NCBI RefSeq assembly: GCF_054482595.1 | Contig: NZ_CM137008.1 | Reading direction: 5' to 3' (one strand) | DNA length: 64,000 bases | Shown: positions 6,514 to 60,891 of the stretch, one piece after another | Layout of the letters: each line of letters starts with the position of its first letter | Numbering within the stretch: the first letter of the stretch is position 1 | Made by a program: the position numbers and the translations under genes | The notes under the pieces: generated by a model | Database searches by the model: none | Told to the model about the DNA's origin: nothing | Seen by the model: only the letters and a program-made list of their open reading frames with translations

Positions 6514-7446
6514 TCAGCCCTTAAACACGTTATAGCCGAGTTGCTTAGCGACCGATGCCACCATTTTTTGACCGCGAACACTGTTGCCTTCTTCGTCCAG
6601 CGGTGGTGAGAACGCGGCAATTCCCATCACACCAGGGACGACCGCCAGAATACCGCCACCTACACCGCTTTTGCCCGGTAAACCAACGCGATATGCCCAG
6701 TCACCGGAGCGACCATACAGCCCTTCCATCATCATTTCGGCCAGAATGTACGGCACGTTATCGGCCTGAAGAACGCGTTTATGCGTCAGCGGATTCACTC
6801 CCCCCGCCGCCAGCGTCGCGCCAAGTGTTGCCAGTTCAACAGTATTGAGGAGCGTGGAGCACTGACGGGTGTACACGTCACAGGCTTCCATTGCATCACA
6901 ATAGAGATATCCGGCGGAGTACAGCAGCCAGGCAATGGCCCGGTTATGGAAGTTGGTTGTTTGTTCCGACTGGTTGACTTCGTCAGAGAGCGCTACCTGC
7001 TCACCAGCCAGTTGCTGTTGGATATGTAAAATTCGCTGCCAGCGTTGTTCAACATTTTCAGCGTTAATCAGGCTGGTGGTGGCAATGGCACCAGCATTTA
7101 CCAGTGGCGAAAGCGGTTTGCCGCCATGCAACTCTAAGGCGATAACTGAGTTAAAGGGCAATCCGGTCGGGTCAGCGCCAATTTTGTCCTGTACCGCCTG
7201 CGGGCCGACATCCTCTAACGCAAGGGCTAACGTACAGACTTTCGAGATGGATTCCAGCGCAAAGCGGTAATCACTGTCACCCGCACTATAGACCTTGCCA
7301 TCGCAGGTCACGATAGCCACTGCCGCCAGTTGACCAGGCACATTCGCCAGAAAGGGAATGTAGTCGGCATTTTGACCGCCGTTAAGTGAGTGAAATTGGG
7401 TGTAAGCCTGATCCACTGCCTGCTGTAATTTGTTTGCATCTAACAT
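6514..7446 (-). CDS. glsA: Glutaminase 1 (GlsA/YbaS)
   Basis: 310-aa ORF; matches the glutaminase family as recalled; upstream of ybaT with a 2-nt gap. Confidence 0.92.
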   Translation of the reverse strand: MLDANKLQQAVDQAYTQFHSLNGGQNADYIPFLANVPGQLAAVAIVTCDGKVYSAGDSDYRFALESISKVCTLALALEDVGPQAVQDKIGADPTGLPFNSVIALELHGGKPLSPLVNAGAIATTSLINAENVEQRWQRILHIQQQLAGEQVALSDEVNQSEQTTNFHNRAIAWLLYSAGYLYCDAMEACDVYTRQCSTLLNTVELATLGATLAAGGVNPLTHKRVLQADNVPYILAEMMMEGLYGRSGDWAYRVGLPGKSGVGGGILAVVPGVMGIAAFSPPLDEEGNSVRGQKMVASVAKQLGYNVFKG

Positions 7447-7637
7447 CTTTTGTTAACTCCTTTTTATAGATGCGGGAGGTAATTCCTCACCCCGGTGCCG
7501 ATTTTGAGGCATCCTGATTTAACTTAGCACCCGCAACTTAACTACAGGAAAACAAAGAGATAAATGTCTAATCCTGATGCAAATTGAGCCAATTTTTTAA
7601 TCTTTACGGACTTTTACTCGCCTGGTTTATTAATTTC

Positions 7638-7668
7638 TTGACCTTCCCCTTGCTGGAAGGTTTAACCT
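7638..7668 (+). promoter_or_regulatory. copA promoter with CueR operator dyad inside a long -35/-10 spacer
   Basis: TTGACC (7638-7643), then dyad ACCTTCCCCTTGCTGGAAGGT, then TAACCT about 19 bp downstream; classic MerR-type promoter geometry about 40 bp upstream of copA ATG. Confidence 0.85.
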
Positions 7669-7707
7669 TTATCACAGCCAGTCAAAACTGTCTTAAAGGA
7701 GTGTTTT

Positions 7708-10212
7708 ATGTCACAAATTATCGACCTGACCCTGGACGGCCTGTCCTGCGGTCACTGCGTTAAACGCGTGAAAGAAAGTCTCGAACAGCGCCCGGATGTG
7801 GAACAAGCGGATGTGTCTATCACTGAAGCGCACGTTACCGGGACTGCCAGTGCAGAACAGCTGATCGAAACCATCAAACAAGCGGGTTATGACGCATCTG
7901 TAAGCCACCCAAAGGCTAAACCGCTGGCGGAGTCATCAATCCCGTCGGAAGCACTGACAGCGGTTTCTGAGGCGCTTCCGGCAGCGACCGCCGATGACGA
8001 TGACAGCCAGCAGTTGCTGCTGAGCGGCATGAGCTGCGCCAGCTGTGTCACCCGCGTACAAAATGCGCTGCAAAGCGTACCGGGCGTCACTCAGGCACGG
8101 GTAAACCTGGCGGAGCGTACTGCGCTGGTGATGGGCAGTGCCTCCCCACAAGATTTAGTGCAGGCGGTGGAAAAAGCGGGCTACGGTGCGGAAGCGATTG
8201 AAGATGACGCTAAACGCCGCGAGCGCCAGCAAGAAACCGCCGTAGCTACGATGAAGCGCTTCCGCTGGCAGGCAATTGTTGCACTGGCTGTGGGTATCCC
8301 GGTAATGGTCTGGGGGATGATCGGCGATAACATGATGGTCACCGCTGACAACCGCAGCTTGTGGTTAGTTATCGGCCTGATAACCCTGGCAGTGATGGTT
8401 TTCGCCGGCGGCCATTTTTACCGCAGTGCATGGAAAAGCCTGCTGAACGGTGCAGCGACGATGGATACGCTGGTGGCGCTGGGAACGGGTGTGGCGTGGC
8501 TCTATTCGATGAGCGTCAACCTGTGGCCGCAGTGGTTCCCGATGGAAGCGCGGCATCTTTACTATGAAGCCAGTGCGATGATTATCGGTCTGATTAATCT
8601 CGGCCATATGCTGGAAGCGCGCGCACGTCAGCGTTCTTCTAAGGCGCTGGAGAAATTACTCGATTTAACCCCACCGACGGCGCGCCTGGTTACTGACGAA
8701 GGTGAAAAAAGCGTGCCTCTGGCGGAAGTGCAGCCAGGTATGTTGCTGCGCCTGACGACCGGCGATCGCGTGCCGGTAGATGGCGAGATTACCCAGGGCG
8801 AAGCATGGCTGGATGAAGCGATGCTGACGGGCGAACCAATCCCGCAGCAAAAAGGCGAAGGCGAAAGCGTCCATGCCGGGACAGTGGTACAGGACGGTAG
8901 CGTGCTGTTTCGTGCCAGTGCGGTTGGCAGCCATACCACGCTGTCACGGATCATTCGCATGGTGCGCCAGGCCCAGAGCAGCAAGCCAGAAATCGGTCAG
9001 CTGGCGGATAAAATCTCAGCCGTATTTGTACCTGTGGTGGTGGTGATTGCGCTGGTCAGTGCGGCAATCTGGTACTTCTTTGGTCCGGCACCGCAAATTG
9101 TTTATACCCTGGTGATTGCCACCACGGTACTGATTATCGCCTGTCCGTGTGCGCTGGGGCTGGCGACGCCGATGTCGATTATTTCCGGCGTCGGGCGGGC
9201 GGCTGAGTTTGGCGTGCTGGTGCGGGACGCCGACGCGCTGCAACGCGCCAGTACACTCGATACCGTCGTGTTCGATAAAACCGGGACGCTGACCGAAGGG
9301 AAGCCGCAGGTTGTCGCAGTGAAAACGTTTGCTGATGTTGATGAAGCGCAGGCATTGCGTCTGGCGGCGGCACTGGAGCAAGGTTCCAGCCATCCGCTGG
9401 CACGGGCGATCCTCGATAAAGCAGGTGATATGCAGCTGCCGCAGGTCAACGGTTTCCGCACATTGCGCGGGCTGGGCGTGAGCGGTGAAGCTGAAGGTCA
9501 TGCGTTATTGCTGGGCAATCAGGCGCTGTTAAATGAGCAACAGGTTGGTACCAAAGCTATCGAAGCGGAGATTACTGCTCAGGCATCGCAAGGAGCAACG
9601 CCTGTGCTGCTGGCGATTGACGGGAAAGCAGTAGCCCTGCTGGCTGTACGCGATCCGTTGCGTAGTGATAGCGTGGCGGCGCTGCAACGCCTGCATAAAG
9701 CGGGATATCGTCTGGTGATGTTGACCGGGGATAACCCAACCACCGCCAATGCGATCGCCAAAGAAGCCGGGATTGATGAGGTGATAGCCGGGGTGCTGCC
9801 GGACGGTAAAGCCGAAGCGATTAAACGCCTGCAAAGTGAAGGACGTCAGGTGGCAATGGTGGGCGACGGCATTAACGACGCGCCAGCGCTGGCTCAGGCG
9901 GATGTCGGCATTGCGATGGGTGGCGGCAGTGATGTTGCTATTGAAACCGCGGCGATTACCCTGATGCGCCATAGCCTGATGGGCGTTGCGGATGCGCTCG
10001 CTATTTCCCGCGCAACGCTGCGCAACATGAAGCAGAACCTGCTCGGCGCGTTTATCTACAACAGCATCGGTATTCCGGTTGCCGCCGGTATTTTGTGGCC
10101 GTTTACTGGAACACTGCTTAACCCGGTGGTTGCCGGAGCGGCAATGGCGCTCTCGTCGATTACCGTAGTGAGTAACGCCAACCGGTTGCTGCGGTTTAAA
10201 CCGAAGGAATAA
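7708..10212 (+). CDS. copA: Cu(I)-translocating P1B-type ATPase CopA
   Basis: 834-aa ORF; two N-terminal metal-binding domains (GLSCGHC, GMSCASC), CPC motif (IACPCALG), DKTGTLT phosphorylation site, GDGINDAP hinge. Confidence 0.97.
7908..7919 (+). other. copA: Programmed -1 ribosomal frameshift site in copA giving the short CopA(Z) product
   Basis: Slippery heptamer C_CCA_AAG at 7908-7914 in the copA zero frame (codons 68-69); -1 frame reads CCC AAA GGC TAA, stopping at 7917-7919. Confidence 0.7.
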
Positions 10213-10268: not shown

Positions 10269-11010
<742 letters not shown>

Positions 11011-11032
11011 GAGATGAAGCGATGTTTTGGCC

Positions 11033-11512: not shown

Positions 11513-12307
11513 ATGGATCTGTTGTACCGGGTAAAAACGCTTTGGGCCGCGCTGCGCGGTAATCATTACTCCTGGCCTGCCATCGATATCACCCTCCCCG
11601 GCAATCGCCATTTTCATCTGATTGGCAGTATTCATATGGGTAGCCACGATATGGCTCCCCTGCCCGCCCGTTTGCTCAAAAAGCTCAAAAACGCCGATGC
11701 GCTGATCGTCGAGGCGGATGTTTCCACCAGCGATACGCCTTTTGCTAATTTGCCTGCCTGCGAGGCGCTGGAAGAGCGTATTAGCGAGGAGCAATTACAA
11801 AATCTGCAGCACATTAGCCAGGTGATGGGCATTTCTCCGTCACTCTTTTCTACCCAACCGCTGTGGCAAATCGCGATGGTTCTTCAGGCGACGCAGGCAC
11901 AAAAACTGGGGCTGCGGGCAGAATACGGTATCGATTACCAGTTATTGCAGGCGGCGAAGCAACAACATAAACCCGTGATTGAACTGGAAGGGGCTGAAAA
12001 CCAGATTGCCATGTTGCTCCAGCTCCCTGACAAAGGACTGGCGCTGCTGGACGATACGCTGACCCACTGGCATACCAACGCACGGTTGCTGCAACAAATG
12101 ATGAGCTGGTGGCTGAATGCGCCGCCGCAAAATAATGAAATAACGCTGCCCAATACGTTCAGTCAGTCGCTGTACGATGTGCTGATGCATCAGCGAAATC
12201 TCGCCTGGCGGGATAAATTACGCGCCATGCCGCCGGGGCGATATGTGGTCGCGGTCGGTGCACTACACCTGTATGGAGAAGGGAATTTGCCGCAAATGTT
12301 GCGCTAA
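11513..12307 (+). CDS. ybaP: TraB/GumN-family protein YbaP
   Basis: 264-aa ORF with preceding SD (aaagggaggtcgt ATG); conserved position between ybaQ and ybaK. Confidence 0.88.
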   Translation: MDLLYRVKTLWAALRGNHYSWPAIDITLPGNRHFHLIGSIHMGSHDMAPLPARLLKKLKNADALIVEADVSTSDTPFANLPACEALEERISEEQLQNLQHISQVMGISPSLFSTQPLWQIAMVLQATQAQKLGLRAEYGIDYQLLQAAKQQHKPVIELEGAENQIAMLLQLPDKGLALLDDTLTHWHTNARLLQQMMSWWLNAPPQNNEITLPNTFSQSLYDVLMHQRNLAWRDKLRAMPPGRYVVAVGALHLYGEGNLPQMLR

Positions 12308-12389
12308 AAAAATGGCCAATATCGCTATTGGCCCGTCAAAGAGGAATTTCATTTTTTTATTATTATGCCGTCACTTTAAGCGACGGTGT
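12305..12389 (-). ncRNA. chiX: ChiX (MicM/SroB) Hfq-dependent small RNA
   Basis: Minus strand reads ACACCGTCGCTTAAAGTGACGGCATAATAATAAAAAAATGAAATTCCTCTTTGACGGGCCAATAGCGATATTGGCCATTTTTTT, matching recalled ChiX with its terminator hairpin and U-tract. Confidence 0.85.
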
Positions 12390-18054: not shown

Positions 18055-18150
18055 ATGAAAAATATGTAGGCATGATAAGACGCGCCAGCGTCGCATCGGG
18101 CATCGAGAGCCAAATGCCAGATGCGGCGTGAACGCCTTATCTGGCCTACG
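18055..18150. repeat. REP pair (single BIME) downstream of ybaL
   Basis: gtaggcatgataagacgcgccagcgtcgcatcgggca and gccagatgcggcgtgaacgccttatctggcctac in inverted orientation. Confidence 0.85.
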
Positions 18151-25569: not shown

Positions 25570-27501
25570 TCAAATGGGGCGGATACTTTCTTCATCCAGC
25601 TCCGCATCGAAGAACCGACGCAGGGTCTGAATATTATTATCCGCAATAATGGACTCGCGCGCCTGCGCAAGTTTTTCTTCGTATATCGCCTGACGCCACT
25701 CCAGCGGCGTACGCACCGCGGGATTATCATCTTCAACGATAGTCAGTTCAACCGTTGAACCTTTTAACGTGCTCAACGCTTCAGCCAGTTTTTGCTGTGC
25801 ACCGCGGTTGTTCAAATGCCGCTGAGAGGAGCGCAAATGCAGACATACTGCGTTGTCGCTCTCCTCTTTCCAGGCATTTAAGGCCACCTGTTCGACCAGT
25901 TTTGGTAGCGAAAGTTGACTCACCTGTGCCGCCCACGCGTCGCGCTCAATGGCTTCTGCCGCCAGCTTCGCCGCCAGTTCCGGCGTTTTTTCATGTTCCA
26001 GCGCTTTTTTCAGCGCCTTCGGCGTGGCGACCACTTCTTTTTGCTGCATCACTGGAGTGGTAGCCTTCCAGCGATACGCTTCTTTTTTGGCTGGCGCTTT
26101 TTCCAGCGCCGATGGCACCGGACGCGCCTGAACGCGATCGGTGACCGAAGCCAGTCTTTCCAGCGCAGCGTTATTCACCGGCCGCGCGCGGGTAGCGGCT
26201 GCCGGTTCACTCTTTTTTGCTTTGGTTGCTCCCTGCACGCGCTGCAACTGCTGGCGCGCCGCCAGCACCTGGCTGGTGGTTTCCGGGAGCGGTACAGTCG
26301 GTGCCTGCTGCGGCGCTGATTGCGGTTGCGGCGGCACCTGGGTTGGCGTCATTACTGCCGTTGGCGCGACGGGCGCAAAGGACTGGCGTGGCACTTCTGG
26401 CTCAGGCAGAGGCATACGTGGATGGAACGCCAGCGCGCGCAGCAGCGTCATCTCAACGCCCATGCGGCGGTCCGGCGCATACGGTAATTCTTTGCGACCA
26501 ATCAACAGCGTCTGATAGTAAAGCTGAATATCCGTCGGCGGTATGGTGCGCGCCAGTTCACGCATCCGCAGCTCAATGGCGGCCATGTCGTTGCCAAGTG
26601 CAGCAGGCGAAAGTTGTACCATCGCAATACGATGCAACAGGCCGAGCATTTCCACCAGCAACGCTTCCCACTCGATACCACGGGCAGCGGCTTCATTAAT
26701 CAGCGCCATTACGCGCTCGCCGTTGGCCTCGACCATCGCTTCAACCAGCGACAGCGCCTGATCGTCGTCAAGCGTACCCAGCATCGCACTGACTGCCTGG
26801 GTTGAAACCTGGCCGTCACCGCTGGCAATCGCCTGGTCGGTCAGACTTAAGGCATCTCGCAGGCTGCCTTCAGCGGCGCGCGCCAGCAATTGCAACGCCC
26901 GCGGCTCGTGAGCGATATGTTCTTCGTTGAGGATGTGCTCAAGTTGATGGCGAATTTGCTCGACATCCAGCGCCTTGAGATGAAATTGCAAACAGCGCGA
27001 CAAAATCGTCACCGGCAATTTCTGTGGATCGGTCGTCGCCAGCAGAAACTTAACGTGCTCCGGCGGCTCTTCAAGGGTTTTTAACAGTGCGTTAAAGCTG
27101 TGGCGCGACAGCATATGCACTTCGTCGATCAGATAAACTTTGAAACGACCACGCGCCGGAGCGTACTGGACGTTATCCAGCAGGTCGCGGGTATCTTCAA
27201 CTTTGGTGCGCGAGGCGGCGTCGATTTCAATCAGATCGACAAAGCGCCCCTGCTCGATTTCACGACAGTTATCGCACACGCCGCACGGCGTCGCGGTAAT
27301 GCCGGTTTCGCAGTTTAGCCCCTTCGCCAGCAGTCGGGCGATAGAGGTTTTTCCGACGCCACGGGTACCGGAAAAAAGATAAGCATGATGAATACGCCCT
27401 AACGACAAGCCGTTCGCCAGTGCGGTCAGCACATGTTCCTGGCCGACGACGTCAGCAAAGGTTTGTGGGCGCCATTTTCGGGCTAAGACCTGATAACTCA
27501 T
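25570..27501 (-). CDS. dnaX: DNA polymerase III subunits tau/gamma
   Basis: 643-aa ORF; AAA+ Walker A GTRGVGKTS, Walker B DEVH, zinc module CGVCDNC. Confidence 0.97.
   Translation of the reverse strand: MSYQVLARKWRPQTFADVVGQEHVLTALANGLSLGRIHHAYLFSGTRGVGKTSIARLLAKGLNCETGITATPCGVCDNCREIEQGRFVDLIEIDAASRTKVEDTRDLLDNVQYAPARGRFKVYLIDEVHMLSRHSFNALLKTLEEPPEHVKFLLATTDPQKLPVTILSRCLQFHLKALDVEQIRHQLEHILNEEHIAHEPRALQLLARAAEGSLRDALSLTDQAIASGDGQVSTQAVSAMLGTLDDDQALSLVEAMVEANGERVMALINEAAARGIEWEALLVEMLGLLHRIAMVQLSPAALGNDMAAIELRMRELARTIPPTDIQLYYQTLLIGRKELPYAPDRRMGVEMTLLRALAFHPRMPLPEPEVPRQSFAPVAPTAVMTPTQVPPQPQSAPQQAPTVPLPETTSQVLAARQQLQRVQGATKAKKSEPAAATRARPVNNAALERLASVTDRVQARPVPSALEKAPAKKEAYRWKATTPVMQQKEVVATPKALKKALEHEKTPELAAKLAAEAIERDAWAAQVSQLSLPKLVEQVALNAWKEESDNAVCLHLRSSQRHLNNRGAQQKLAEALSTLKGSTVELTIVEDDNPAVRTPLEWRQAIYEEKLAQARESIIADNNIQTLRRFFDAELDEESIRPI
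26205..26218 (-). other. dnaX: dnaX programmed -1 frameshift site that yields gamma
   Basis: Minus strand reads GCA AAA AAG AGU GAA: heptamer A_AAA_AAG in frame (..ATKAKKSEP..), with UGA in the -1 frame directly after. Confidence 0.9.
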
Positions 27502-43030: not shown

Positions 43031-43144
43031 GGGTGGGGGCCCTGCCAGCTACATCCCGGCACACGCGTCATCTGCCTTGGCTGCTTCCTTCCGGACCTGA
43101 CCTGGTAAACAGAGTAGCGTTGCGGGAGAACCAACAGAGCCCCC
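43031..43144 (-). ncRNA. ffs: 4.5S RNA (signal recognition particle RNA)
   Basis: Minus strand reads GGGGGCUCUGUUGGUUCUCCCGCAACGCUACUCUGUUUACCAGGUCAGGUCCGGAAGGAAGCAGCCAAGGCAGAUGACGCGUGUGCCGGGAUGUAGCUGGCAGGGCCCCCACCC; ends +/-1 nt. Confidence 0.95.
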
Positions 43145-60704: not shown

Positions 60705-60787
60705 AGAGCTCTCTCTTAGTTTAATTTCCGCCAGGTAATCAGATGACACGACTGTGCTTCACGCCATCTATTAACATGTACGTCAGT

Positions 60788-60816
60788 ATATGGGGATGTT
60801 TCCCCCACATTCAACG
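60788..60816 (-). promoter_or_regulatory. Sigma-32 heat-shock promoter of lon
   Basis: Minus strand GCGTTGAATGTGGGGGAAACATCCCCATATACTGACG: TTGAA (-35) and CCCCATAT (-10). Confidence 0.8.
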
Positions 60817-60864
60817 CCGAGAATAGAGGAAAAATTAAAGGGGAGATAAAATCCCCCCTTTTTG
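60808..60864 (+). ncRNA. Candidate small RNA in the clpX-lon spacer (possibly SraA), ending at a plus-strand terminator
   Basis: Plus-strand hairpin aaaggggagataaaatcccccc followed by tttttgg at 60836-60864; position matches my recollection of sraA in the clpX-lon intergenic region, antisense to the lon promoter. Confidence 0.35.
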
Positions 60865-60891
60865 GTTAACTAATTGTATGGGAATGGTTAA

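Follow-up and report, generated by a model that had tools for sequence, protein, structure and literature searches.

The copA Locus and Its Promoter

The window, the whole 64,000-nt stretch of DNA that was analysed, is E. coli chromosome. Its positions 7600-8200 are 100% identical to many E. coli chromosomes in sequence comparison, and K-12 MG1655 (NC_000913.3) shows no difference from it over 7810-8060. On the plus strand lies copA, with a zero-frame coding sequence at 7708-10212 (ATG at 7708, stop codon at 10210-10212) for a protein of 834 aa, in which Pfam recognizes two HMA domains, an E1-E2_ATPase domain and a Hydrolase domain. RefSeq names it 'copper-exporting P-type ATPase CopA', and the product, with both HMA domains at its N-terminus, is a P1B-type ATPase that exports Cu(I). 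The first of these heavy-metal-associated domains, MBD1 (Pfam PF00403), comprises residues 8-62 and is encoded at 7729-7893 (plus strand).

The copA promoter occupies 7638-7668 (plus strand) and consists of a -35 element TTGACC (7638-7643), a 19-nt spacer and a -10 element TAACCT (7663-7668), the spacer holding a dyad, the perfect 7-nt inverted repeat ACCTTCC/GGAAGGT (7641-7647/7655-7661). We take this layout to be that of a CueR (MerR-type) copper-activated promoter. In strain 120899, which is 100% identical over 7600-8200, cueR lies near copA, together with glsA and ybaT on one side, while ybaQ and ybaP are found on the other. A scan for consensus sigma-70 promoters upstream of copA, allowing 16-18 nt spacers only, found nothing, and it misses the copA promoter because the MerR-type spacer measures 19 nt. 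The pump and the shorter product CopA(Z) would both be expressed from the same copper-activated promoter, probably in dependence on CueR.

The K-12 RefSeq record contains a two-piece joined CDS (511168..511379, 212 nt) for a 'soluble Cu(+) chaperone' (YP_009518752.1); most RefSeq E. coli records, for example that of strain 120899, have no CopA(Z) annotation. Since 7810-8060 is identical and K-12 carries the joined CDS annotation, the locus in the window is the characterised K-12 site, with the same gene, site, heptamer, -1 stop and 70-aa product. Compared with K-12, copA of the window strain has six base differences in the part encoding MBD1, one of which turns residue 4 from Thr (K-12) into Ile (window strain), but none in the frameshift cassette. 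The K-12 site for programmed -1 ribosomal frameshifting (-1 PRF) that leads to CopA(Z) was reportedly described by Meydan et al. (Mol Cell 65:207) and by Drees et al. (Mol Microbiol 106:635), both in 2017. The site is thus the already-described programmed -1 ribosomal frameshift of E. coli copA, real and not new. The first-pass annotation had matched it to the described copA frameshift that frees the first metal-binding domain, and the K-12 identity, the joined CDS and the literature bear this out; a real recoding site had been recognized from raw sequence.

Anatomy of the Frameshift Site

The slippery heptamer C_CCA_AAG stands at 7908-7914 (plus strand) in the X_XXY_YYZ register, at zero-frame codons 68-69 of copA, where the first-pass annotation had placed it, and directly past the first metal-binding domain as it had stated, given the Pfam HMA limits of residues 8-62. 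The zero-frame codons are H67 CAC (7906-7908), P68 CCA (7909-7911), K69 AAG (7912-7914) and A70 GCT. Read from 7908, the -1 frame runs CCC AAA GGC TAA, and its stop TAA, read in the sequence at 7917-7919 (plus strand), marks the end of CopA(Z); this frame had been correctly given, but the accompanying count of two more codons was loose, since GGC is the sole new sense codon after the slip. The CopA(Z) coding region extends over 7708-7919 (plus strand), with the zero frame at 7708-7914, a -1 slip and then 7914-7919 (GGC TAA). Its predicted product, earlier put at roughly 70 aa, has exactly 70 aa by translation (MSQII...SHPKG), i.e., one complete HMA/CxxC domain plus a Gly. The geometry leaves a 6-nt spacer, GCUAAA (7915-7920, plus strand), between the heptamer and stem 1 of the downstream structure, and this spacer measures 4-6 nt in all relatives.

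The heptamer string alone does not exceed chance: the window has 4 copies of CCCAAAG vs. 8.2 ± 3.3 in shuffles, and 21 in-frame X_XXY_YYZ heptamers are found within the 42 long ORFs of the window. Of the in-frame heptamers in the window, just two end in AAG, that of copA at 7908 and that of dnaX at 26212, and both are followed by a -1 stop one codon on. What is non-random is not the string itself but its context, namely species conservation, synonymous suppression and the downstream structure. About 52 of 80 Enterobacteriaceae carry a Shine-Dalgarno (SD)-like GGAG 12 nt 5' of the heptamer. This GGAG is absent in Escherichia, and an upstream SD-like stimulator as in dnaX was rejected as a required part of the cassette.

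Conservation Across Relatives

Orthologues came from 80 Enterobacteriaceae species and from 12 distant relatives (Proteus, Providencia, Erwinia, Pantoea), the latter at 49-68% identity. The protein homologue search returned mostly short N-terminal CopA fragments, whose loci were used only as DNA sources; many of them belong to genomes whose copA appears as two separate ORF calls, divided far 3' of the frameshift site, and these splits bear no relation to the PRF site. In 92/92 orthologues the heptamer is present as CCCAAAG or CCCAAAA, together with a -1 TAA or TGA at the same offset, so that the conservation which the first-pass annotation had proposed to check across the Enterobacteriaceae holds in 80/80 and, beyond them, in 12/12 distant relatives. 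CCCAAAG is the form in 77/80 Enterobacteriaceae and 7/12 distant relatives, CCCAAAA that in 3/80 and 5/12, respectively. Under the fixed -1 stop the zero-frame residues 70-71 vary (AK, AD, AN, SK, SE, TE, PN, SD, PD, PE, PK).

Codon choice in the cassette is fixed to an unusual degree, with CCA for Pro68 (81/81), GCT for Ala70 (74/74) and the rare CTT for Leu90 (81/81), and the rare codons CTT, ACA, TCG and GCT are all fixed within it. Synonymous variation in copA is lowest at codons 66-92 (rank 1 of 673 windows), where the mean synonymous entropy is 0.13; the gene averages 1.10 and does not fall below 0.81 elsewhere. Of interest here are single codons as well: 17 of the 23 informative codons in this stretch have zero variation vs. 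24/604 gene-wide (hypergeometric p = 7.7e-23). The suppression reaches a few codons 5' of the heptamer (codons 64, 66, and 67). Among E. coli genomes, 5344/5422 (98.6%) have an identical 83-nt cassette, compared to 1810/5416 (33%) for a control 83-mer 120 nt upstream. At the nucleotide level, heptamer, -1 stop and both stems of the downstream structure are under strong purifying selection.

The Downstream Pseudoknot

The structure on the plus strand downstream of the heptamer has an H-type pseudoknot arrangement that starts after the 6-nt spacer and consists of a 6-bp stem 1 (S1, 7921-7926/7958-7963) and a 9-bp stem 2 (S2, 7944-7952/7974-7982). The 5' arm of S1, CCGCUG (7921-7926), is invariant in 71 distinct Enterobacteriaceae sequences, and its 3' arm, CAGCGG (7958-7963), lies within the loop of S2. 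The arms of S2 are GUCGGAAGC (7944-7952), for which every cell pairs in alignment A2, and GCUUCCGGC (7974-7982). Duplex energies are -9.2 kcal/mol for S1 and -14.4 kcal/mol for S2. S1 can be drawn with an extension to 8 bp in E. coli (AACCGCUG/CAGCGGUU); the outer two pairs are not conserved, and the 6-bp core was kept.

In the 71 distinct close sequences 15/15 pairs form, and the two S2 pairs that vary in alignment A2 do so on one side only, with pairing kept; among close Enterobacteriaceae the pseudoknot is invariant and lacks compensatory covariation. When the distant relatives are added, 91% of cells pair vs. 21-49% with the partners slid, a contrast that is inflated by the derivation of the structure from the E. 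coli sequence. Changes on both sides occur in 9/15 pairs vs. 2.8 ± 1.2 in shuffles, 0/500 of which reach 9, and this covariation comes from 12 distant sequences, with L088, L091, and L093 imperfectly aligned in alignment A3. Compensatory variants of S1 are found in Erwinia rhapontici (ACGCUG/CAGCGU), Pantoea (CCGUUG/CAACGG) and L092 (CCACU/AGUGG), and those of S2 in Proteus (CAACUGGAA/UUCCAGUUG), L085 (GACCGGAAC/GUUCCGGUC) and L086 (GCCGGAAU/AUUCCGGC). The geometry of the pseudoknot is kept in relatives.

Nested minimum-free-energy folding gives z = -0.7 vs. shuffles for both 7915-8000 and 7919-7985 by a method that cannot score pseudoknots, and the 5' arm of S2 belongs to the nested minimum-free-energy hairpin. 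The nested fold is uninformative in a GC-rich region whose two stems, S1 and S2, form a pseudoknot, and comparative evidence was therefore used for the structure. The fold of 7915-8000 that the first-pass annotation had suggested is no more stable than shuffles in its nested form, where pseudoknots are not scored, but the comparison recovers a conserved pseudoknot at 7921-7982, in the place (about 7920-7990) where a stimulatory structure had been expected. Both points on which the earlier reading had been made to depend, a conserved downstream structure and the retention of heptamer and -1 stop in orthologues, came out in its favor. Searching Rfam with 7850-8050 yielded no family at gathering score and only noise at E <= 10, and Rfam 15 appears to hold no copA PRF family. 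S1 and S2, with stems assigned here by comparison, form a candidate PRF-stimulating pseudoknot.

Could the RNA structure at 7921-7982 mainly serve another purpose, such as the formation or stabilization of a short copA transcript or the attenuation of transcription or translation into the pump part, with frameshifting as a secondary effect? The title of the Drees 2017 paper names 'differential transcript formation' next to frameshifting as coordinating CopA(Z), and the synonymous suppression 5' of the heptamer would fit such a purpose as well. However, there is no intrinsic-terminator-like site on the plus strand in 7440-8300, S2 is not followed by a U-run, and the 6-nt spacing suits a PRF stimulator, as does the fact that heptamer, -1 stop and stems are strictly conserved together; stimulation of -1 PRF by the pseudoknot has been shown both in single-molecule assays and with reporters (PMC6182138). 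We regard this explanation as very unlikely, while a dual role of the structure is conceivable.

An in-frame X_XXY_YYZ heptamer could also have come to lie near a -1 stop by chance and be biologically idle, for which the unexceptional count of the string, the commonness of slippery-pattern heptamers in frame and the non-significant nested fold might be cited. Against this, heptamer and -1 stop persist through amino-acid changes in every orthologue, the suppression of synonymous change is extreme, both stems covary, and published experiments and the RefSeq annotation back a function. Conservation, synonymous suppression and covariation effectively refute an accidental origin of the site, which is extremely improbable.

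RNA polymerase slips efficiently only on homopolymer runs of about 7 or more. That RNA polymerase rather than the ribosome slips at CCCAAA to yield the truncated product has a vanishingly small probability: both mechanisms can produce -1 products at repetitive sites and sequence alone cannot formally separate them, but the runs here are three C and three A only, the conserved feature is a two-tRNA X_XXY_YYZ register with a structure at ribosomal spacing, and the literature describes ribosomal frameshifting (PMC9548414, PMC7558416).

Mechanism and Literature Support

The locus almost certainly carries a programmed -1 ribosomal frameshift cassette from which E. coli copA yields both the pump and CopA(Z). 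At C_CCA_AAG the P site of the ribosome would be occupied by tRNA-Pro paired with CCA and the A site by tRNA-Lys paired with AAG, while the pseudoknot 6 nt downstream would block the mRNA entrance. A fraction of the ribosomes would then slip back by one base, their tRNAs re-pairing with CCC and AAA, read GGC and terminate at the UAA at 7917-7919 to release the 70-aa CopA(Z), and ribosomes that do not slip would go on to complete the 834-aa Cu(I) pump.

Efficient -1 PRF in copA leading to the 70-aa CopA(Z) is on record (PMC9548414, PMC5009743, PMC7558416), and for E. coli copA a drop-off in ribosome profiling and an independent confirmation have been described (PMC9548414). The copA pseudoknot is reported to stimulate -1 PRF efficiently, as seen with single molecules and with reporters (PMC6182138), and slippery sequence, pseudoknot and nascent chain are said to do so jointly (PMC7558416). 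The gene is counted among the well-characterised PRF cases, and copA, dnaX, and prfB are the only three well-characterised frameshifted chromosomal genes of E. coli without a link to mobile elements (PMC10861913). The efficiency of frameshifting, its stimulation by pseudoknot and nascent chain, and the protection from copper by CopA(Z) are reported in this literature, with Meydan et al. and Drees et al. cited for the frameshift, and are taken from it here. The present analysis adds the order-wide occurrence of heptamer and -1 stop, the sharp trough in synonymous variation and the compensatory changes in both stems.

The CopA(Z) Product

The 70-aa product described as CopA(Z) (PMC5009743) matches PF00403 with a score of 51.7 bits, the match spanning positions 3-62 of the 62 in the profile. 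In translation, the Cu(I)-binding motif of MBD1 is C14-G-H-C17, a CxxC motif, and the PDB sequence matches of the product include CopZ chaperones, e.g., 6ff2 and 1cpz. Chaperones of the CopZ/Atx1 type (Enterococcus hirae CopZ, 1cpz; 6ff2) resemble CopA(Z) in having about 70 aa, one HMA domain and a CxxC motif, and they share with it the reported role of passing Cu(I) on to the CopA pump (PMC7558416). In contrast to these stand-alone proteins, CopA(Z) has no gene of its own and is the first domain of the pump, freed by recoding. CopA(Z) is reported to be a soluble CopZ-like Cu(I) chaperone, with copper binding and a role in copper tolerance described in the literature. The copA frameshift accounts for the origin of the 'missing' CopZ chaperone in enterobacteria.

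Comparison With Other Frameshift Systems

The window contains a second -1 PRF element, that of dnaX (A_AAA_AAG), at 26173-26237 on the minus strand (Rfam RF00382, 96.8 bits). Like copA, dnaX is a chromosomal -1 PRF gene with a heptamer that ends in AAG and is decoded by the single tRNA-Lys, and in both genes a -1 stop one codon past the slip gives a truncated functional product and an RNA structure lies downstream. The stimulators of dnaX are an upstream internal Shine-Dalgarno sequence and a simple stem-loop. By contrast, copA in Escherichia has no upstream SD-like element and has a pseudoknot instead, and the dnaX element has an Rfam family while that of copA has none. For human ATP7B, a homologue of copA, -1 PRF was claimed by analogy in the same paper as the bacterial site; subsequent work traced the ATP7B claim to a reporter artefact, with a site that is not conserved (PMC9548414). 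The copA site passes the same kind of conservation test that the claimed ATP7B site failed.

We consider it somewhat more probable than otherwise that the cassette is an ancient feature of several Enterobacterales families, situated in the linker between the N-terminal HMA and the pump-attached HMA domain(s), and that lineages with multiple HMA domains release chaperones with two or three of them. The literature searched, to which the original copA frameshift paper did not belong, yielded no description of multi-HMA CopA(Z) products. The predicted frameshift product of Proteus vulgaris, with the heptamer CCCAAAA at codons 204-205, has 206 aa (roughly 22 kDa) and three HMA domains, and those of two relatives have 139-140 aa and two HMA domains. 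Lineages with extra N-terminal HMA domains often use C_CCA_AAA rather than C_CCA_AAG.

Identity and anatomy of the copA recoding site

The copA gene, which encodes the Cu(I)-exporting P-type ATPase, starts at ATG 7708 and forms an ORF of 834 codons (7708-10212, plus strand). The segment 7600-8200 is found in 5422 of 5426 complete E. coli genomes and matches many E. coli chromosomes at 100% identity, which annotate it as copA, copper-exporting P-type ATPase; in one identical strain glsA, ybaT and cueR lie to one side of the gene, ybaQ and ybaP to the other. Counted from the ATG, codons 67-69 are CAC (7906-7908), CCA (7909-7911) and AAG (7912-7914), all on the plus strand and followed by GCT as codon 70, and therefore the slippery heptamer C_CCA_AAG (7908-7914, plus strand) has the X_XXY_YYZ register on which tandem -1 slippage depends. 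From 7908 the -1 frame reads CCC AAA GGC TAA, with the stop at 7917-7919 (plus strand), and the shifted product, CopA(Z), comprises residues 1-69 plus Gly, or 70 aa. The first-pass annotation had placed the heptamer in codons 68-69, within 7908-7919, and predicted a product of about 70 aa, both of which hold; the -1 UAA is likewise present, but after a single new sense codon (GGC) and not two.

The CopA(Z) recoding site is already known. In the RefSeq record of K-12 MG1655 a second copA CDS of two joined pieces (511168..511379) is described as 'soluble Cu(+) chaperone' (YP_009518752.1). The window shows no differences from K-12 from about 7810 to 8060, and just six base differences further upstream, in the part coding for the first HMA metal-binding domain (MBD1). 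The site is therefore the annotated K-12 site itself, and its identification with the described copA frameshift was correct. CopA(Z) is without annotation in most RefSeq E. coli records, for example that of strain 120899, and Rfam 15 contains no family for the copA element.

Conservation of the heptamer and the -1 stop

From one scan of species-representative genomes came 80 copA loci of Enterobacteriaceae, with 78-98% identity across their first 231 residues. They carry CCCAAAG (77/80) or CCCAAAA (3/80) at the homologous position and, at an unchanged offset, the -1 stop TAA or TGA (80/80). The stop is kept despite variable zero-frame residues 70-71 (AK, AD, AN, SK, SE, TE, PN, SD), codon 70 ending in T and codon 71 starting with AA or GA in every case. 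Among more distant N-terminal CopA fragments obtained by protein search (49-68% identity), all 27 that were read contain PK[A/S/T/P][K/E/D/N] after an HMA domain, followed by PL or rarely by TL or PR. At the DNA level, 12 distant loci (Proteus vulgaris, Providencia rustigianii, Erwinia rhapontici, another Erwinia, a Pantoea and seven others) all retain the heptamer, as CCCAAAG in seven and CCCAAAA in five, and here too TAA or TGA stands at the unchanged -1 offset. Every relative that the search could reach has the cassette of heptamer, -1 stop and pseudoknot.

A conserved downstream pseudoknot

Four invariant alignment blocks are pairwise complementary and define, on the plus strand, the stems S1 (CCGCUG 7921-7926 / CAGCGG 7958-7963) and S2 (GUCGGAAGC 7944-7952 / GCUUCCGGC 7974-7982). 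Since the 3' arm of S1 lies within the loop of S2, the two stems make up an H-type pseudoknot, with a spacer of 6 nt after the heptamer, loops of 17 (L1), 5 (L2) and 10 nt (L3), and duplex energies of -9.2 (S1) and -14.4 kcal/mol (S2). The stimulatory structure that the first-pass annotation expected at about 7920-7990 is thus present as a conserved pseudoknot at 7921-7982. In the folding it proposed, the nested minimum-free-energy fold includes S2 and has a stability no greater than that of shuffles (z = -0.7), the tool being unable to evaluate pseudoknots.

All 15 pairs form in each of 71 distinct close sequences, 13 being invariant and two varying on one side only with pairing retained (GC to GU; UG to CG or UA). 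S1 is kept in 12/12 distant loci (5-11 bp, starting 4-6 nt past the heptamer), and an automated search returned a non-overlapping S2 of 5-11 bp in 10/12; in the other two it chose overlapping arms, of which L087 can be drawn by eye as CCGGAA/UUCCGG and L090 is weak. Compensatory changes are seen in S1 (ACGCUG/CAGCGU in Erwinia rhapontici, CCGUUG/CAACGG in Pantoea, CCACU/AGUGG in locus L092) and in S2 (CAACUGGAA/UUCCAGUUG in Proteus, GACCGGAAC/GUUCCGGUC in locus L085, GCCGGAAU/AUUCCGGC in locus L086). In a 24-sequence MAFFT alignment scored against the E. coli-derived structure, with L088, L091 and L093 imperfectly aligned, 91% of cells are paired, vs 21-49% when partners are slid by 1-3 columns, and two-sided changes occur at 9/15 pairs, vs 2.8 +/- 1.2 in shuffles, of which 0/500 reached the observed value. 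Over S2, Proteus has changed residues (QLE...IPV vs SEA...LPA) with pairing retained, which points to selection on the RNA.

The pseudoknot may additionally help to make a short transcript, a role to which the title of Drees 2017 points; however, no terminator-like site was found, and the heptamer-to-stem spacing and co-conservation fit a stimulator of programmed ribosomal frameshifting (PRF).

Product, mechanism and promoter

The anatomy of copA fits canonical tandem -1 slippage, in which tRNA-Pro would exchange CCA for CCC and tRNA-Lys AAG for AAA, with the pseudoknot at the mRNA entrance resisting unwinding; the slipped ribosome would then terminate at UAA. Transcriptional slippage as the source of the truncated product is unlikely, nucleotide runs at the heptamer being only three long. 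Ribosomal frameshifting in copA is reported to be efficient and to yield the 70-aa product (PMC5009743), the pseudoknot is reported as an efficient stimulator for which S1 and S2 variants have been described (PMC6182138), and a protective chaperone function has been assigned to CopA(Z) (PMC6771820); according to PMC9548414, ribosome profiling of E. coli copA shows a drop-off, and Drees 2017 confirmed the frameshift independently.

The 70-aa product amounts to a whole HMA domain (PF00403, 51.7 bits, profile positions 3-62 of 62) and contains the metal motif C14-G-H-C17. Among its sequence relatives in the PDB are CopZ chaperones that stand alone as well as metal-binding domains of ATPases. Orthologues differ in the last residue of the product (G, I, N, D, A or V) but keep its end position. 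Upstream, a promoter of CueR-type layout (7638-7668, plus strand) has -35 TTGACC and -10 TAACCT separated by a 19-nt spacer, within which lies the perfect 7-nt inverted repeat ACCTTCC/GGAAGGT (7641-7661); a generic sigma-70 scan misses this promoter because the spacer is long. This is the layout expected for a CueR operator, and both copA products would therefore presumably be copper-induced together.

Chance expectation and synonymous-site constraint

The bare heptamer is no more frequent than by chance: CCCAAAG occurs four times in the window vs 8.2 +/- 3.3 in shuffles, and the 42 long ORFs contain 21 in-frame X_XXY_YYZ heptamers. It is the context that carries weight. Among these ORFs only copA (7908) and dnaX (26212), the two -1 PRF sites known in E. 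coli, have in-frame heptamers ending in AAG, each with a -1 stop one codon past it. The dnaX element (26173-26237, minus strand; Rfam RF00382, 96.8 bits) has the heptamer A_AAA_AAG (26212-26218, minus strand) at codon 429 of a 643-aa ORF. It shares with copA the AAG-ending heptamer and immediate -1 stop, whereas its stimulators are unlike those of copA.

In an alignment of codons 1-700 from 81 copA genes, analyzed in 27-codon windows, codons 66-92 rank first of 673 with a mean synonymous-codon entropy of 0.13 (windows clear of the cassette: gene-wide mean 1.10, minimum 0.81). Synonymous variation is zero at 17/23 informative codons in 66-92 vs 24/604 gene-wide (hypergeometric p = 7.7e-23), and the fixed codons include rare ones (Leu90 CTT 81/81, Thr84 ACA 62/62, Ser80 TCG 77/77, Ala70 GCT 74/74, Pro68 CCA 81/81), those still varying (74, 75, 82, 86-88) lying in the pseudoknot loops. 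Among E. coli genomes, 5344/5422 have an unchanged 83-nt cassette (7903-7985), and 1810/5416 an unchanged control 83-mer 120 nt upstream (7780-7862). The comparative data exclude a chance heptamer without a role.

An SD-like GGAG (codons 63-64, GCG GAG) is located 12 nt 5' of the heptamer in about 52/80 Enterobacteriaceae copA (L007-L082), equivalent to window 7896-7899; Escherichia is without it and has GCA TCT. Codon 64 is GAG in 68/68 sequences with Glu there. In those genera GGAG might be a dnaX-like upstream stimulator.

Relatives with several HMA domains and neighboring features

Some relatives have extra N-terminal HMA domains, and the cassette then follows the third (Proteus vulgaris LR590468.1, L083:2109-2120) or second domain (L085:1911-1922; L086:1908-1919), with C_CCA_AAA instead of C_CCA_AAG as heptamer. 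The predicted -1 products have 206 aa and three HMA domains in Proteus vulgaris, 140 aa and two in L085, and 139 aa and two in L086 (Pfam). No description of multi-HMA frameshift products was found in the literature searched, which consisted of papers other than the primary copA paper. In several public assemblies (L083 to L088) copA is called as two neighboring ORFs, and the split falls 60-330 codons past the frameshift site (349 aa + 631 aa in Proteus vulgaris), because of which the N-terminal protein search gave mainly short 'partial cation transporter' entries. Assembly indels or pseudogenes probably account for these splits, which are unrelated to the PRF site.

Just past the copA stop (10212), a tandem array (10269-11011; 7.4 copies of a 101-bp unit, 97% identity) carries REP/BIME-like palindromes with seven minus-strand matches to Rfam naRNA4, and gives rise to a series of spurious ORFs of 76 and 50 aa; a further naRNA4 copy lies at 18069-18146. 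The length of the copA-ybaQ gap depends on the strain: K-12 has 316 bp, whereas strain 120899, with 100% identity to the window over 7600-8200, has 114 bp. At the Rfam gathering threshold, the known small RNAs sroB/ChiX (12306-12389, minus strand), SRP RNA (ffs; 43040-43136, minus strand) and sraA (60776-60871, plus strand) were found; their positions fit the order of genes around copA in K-12.
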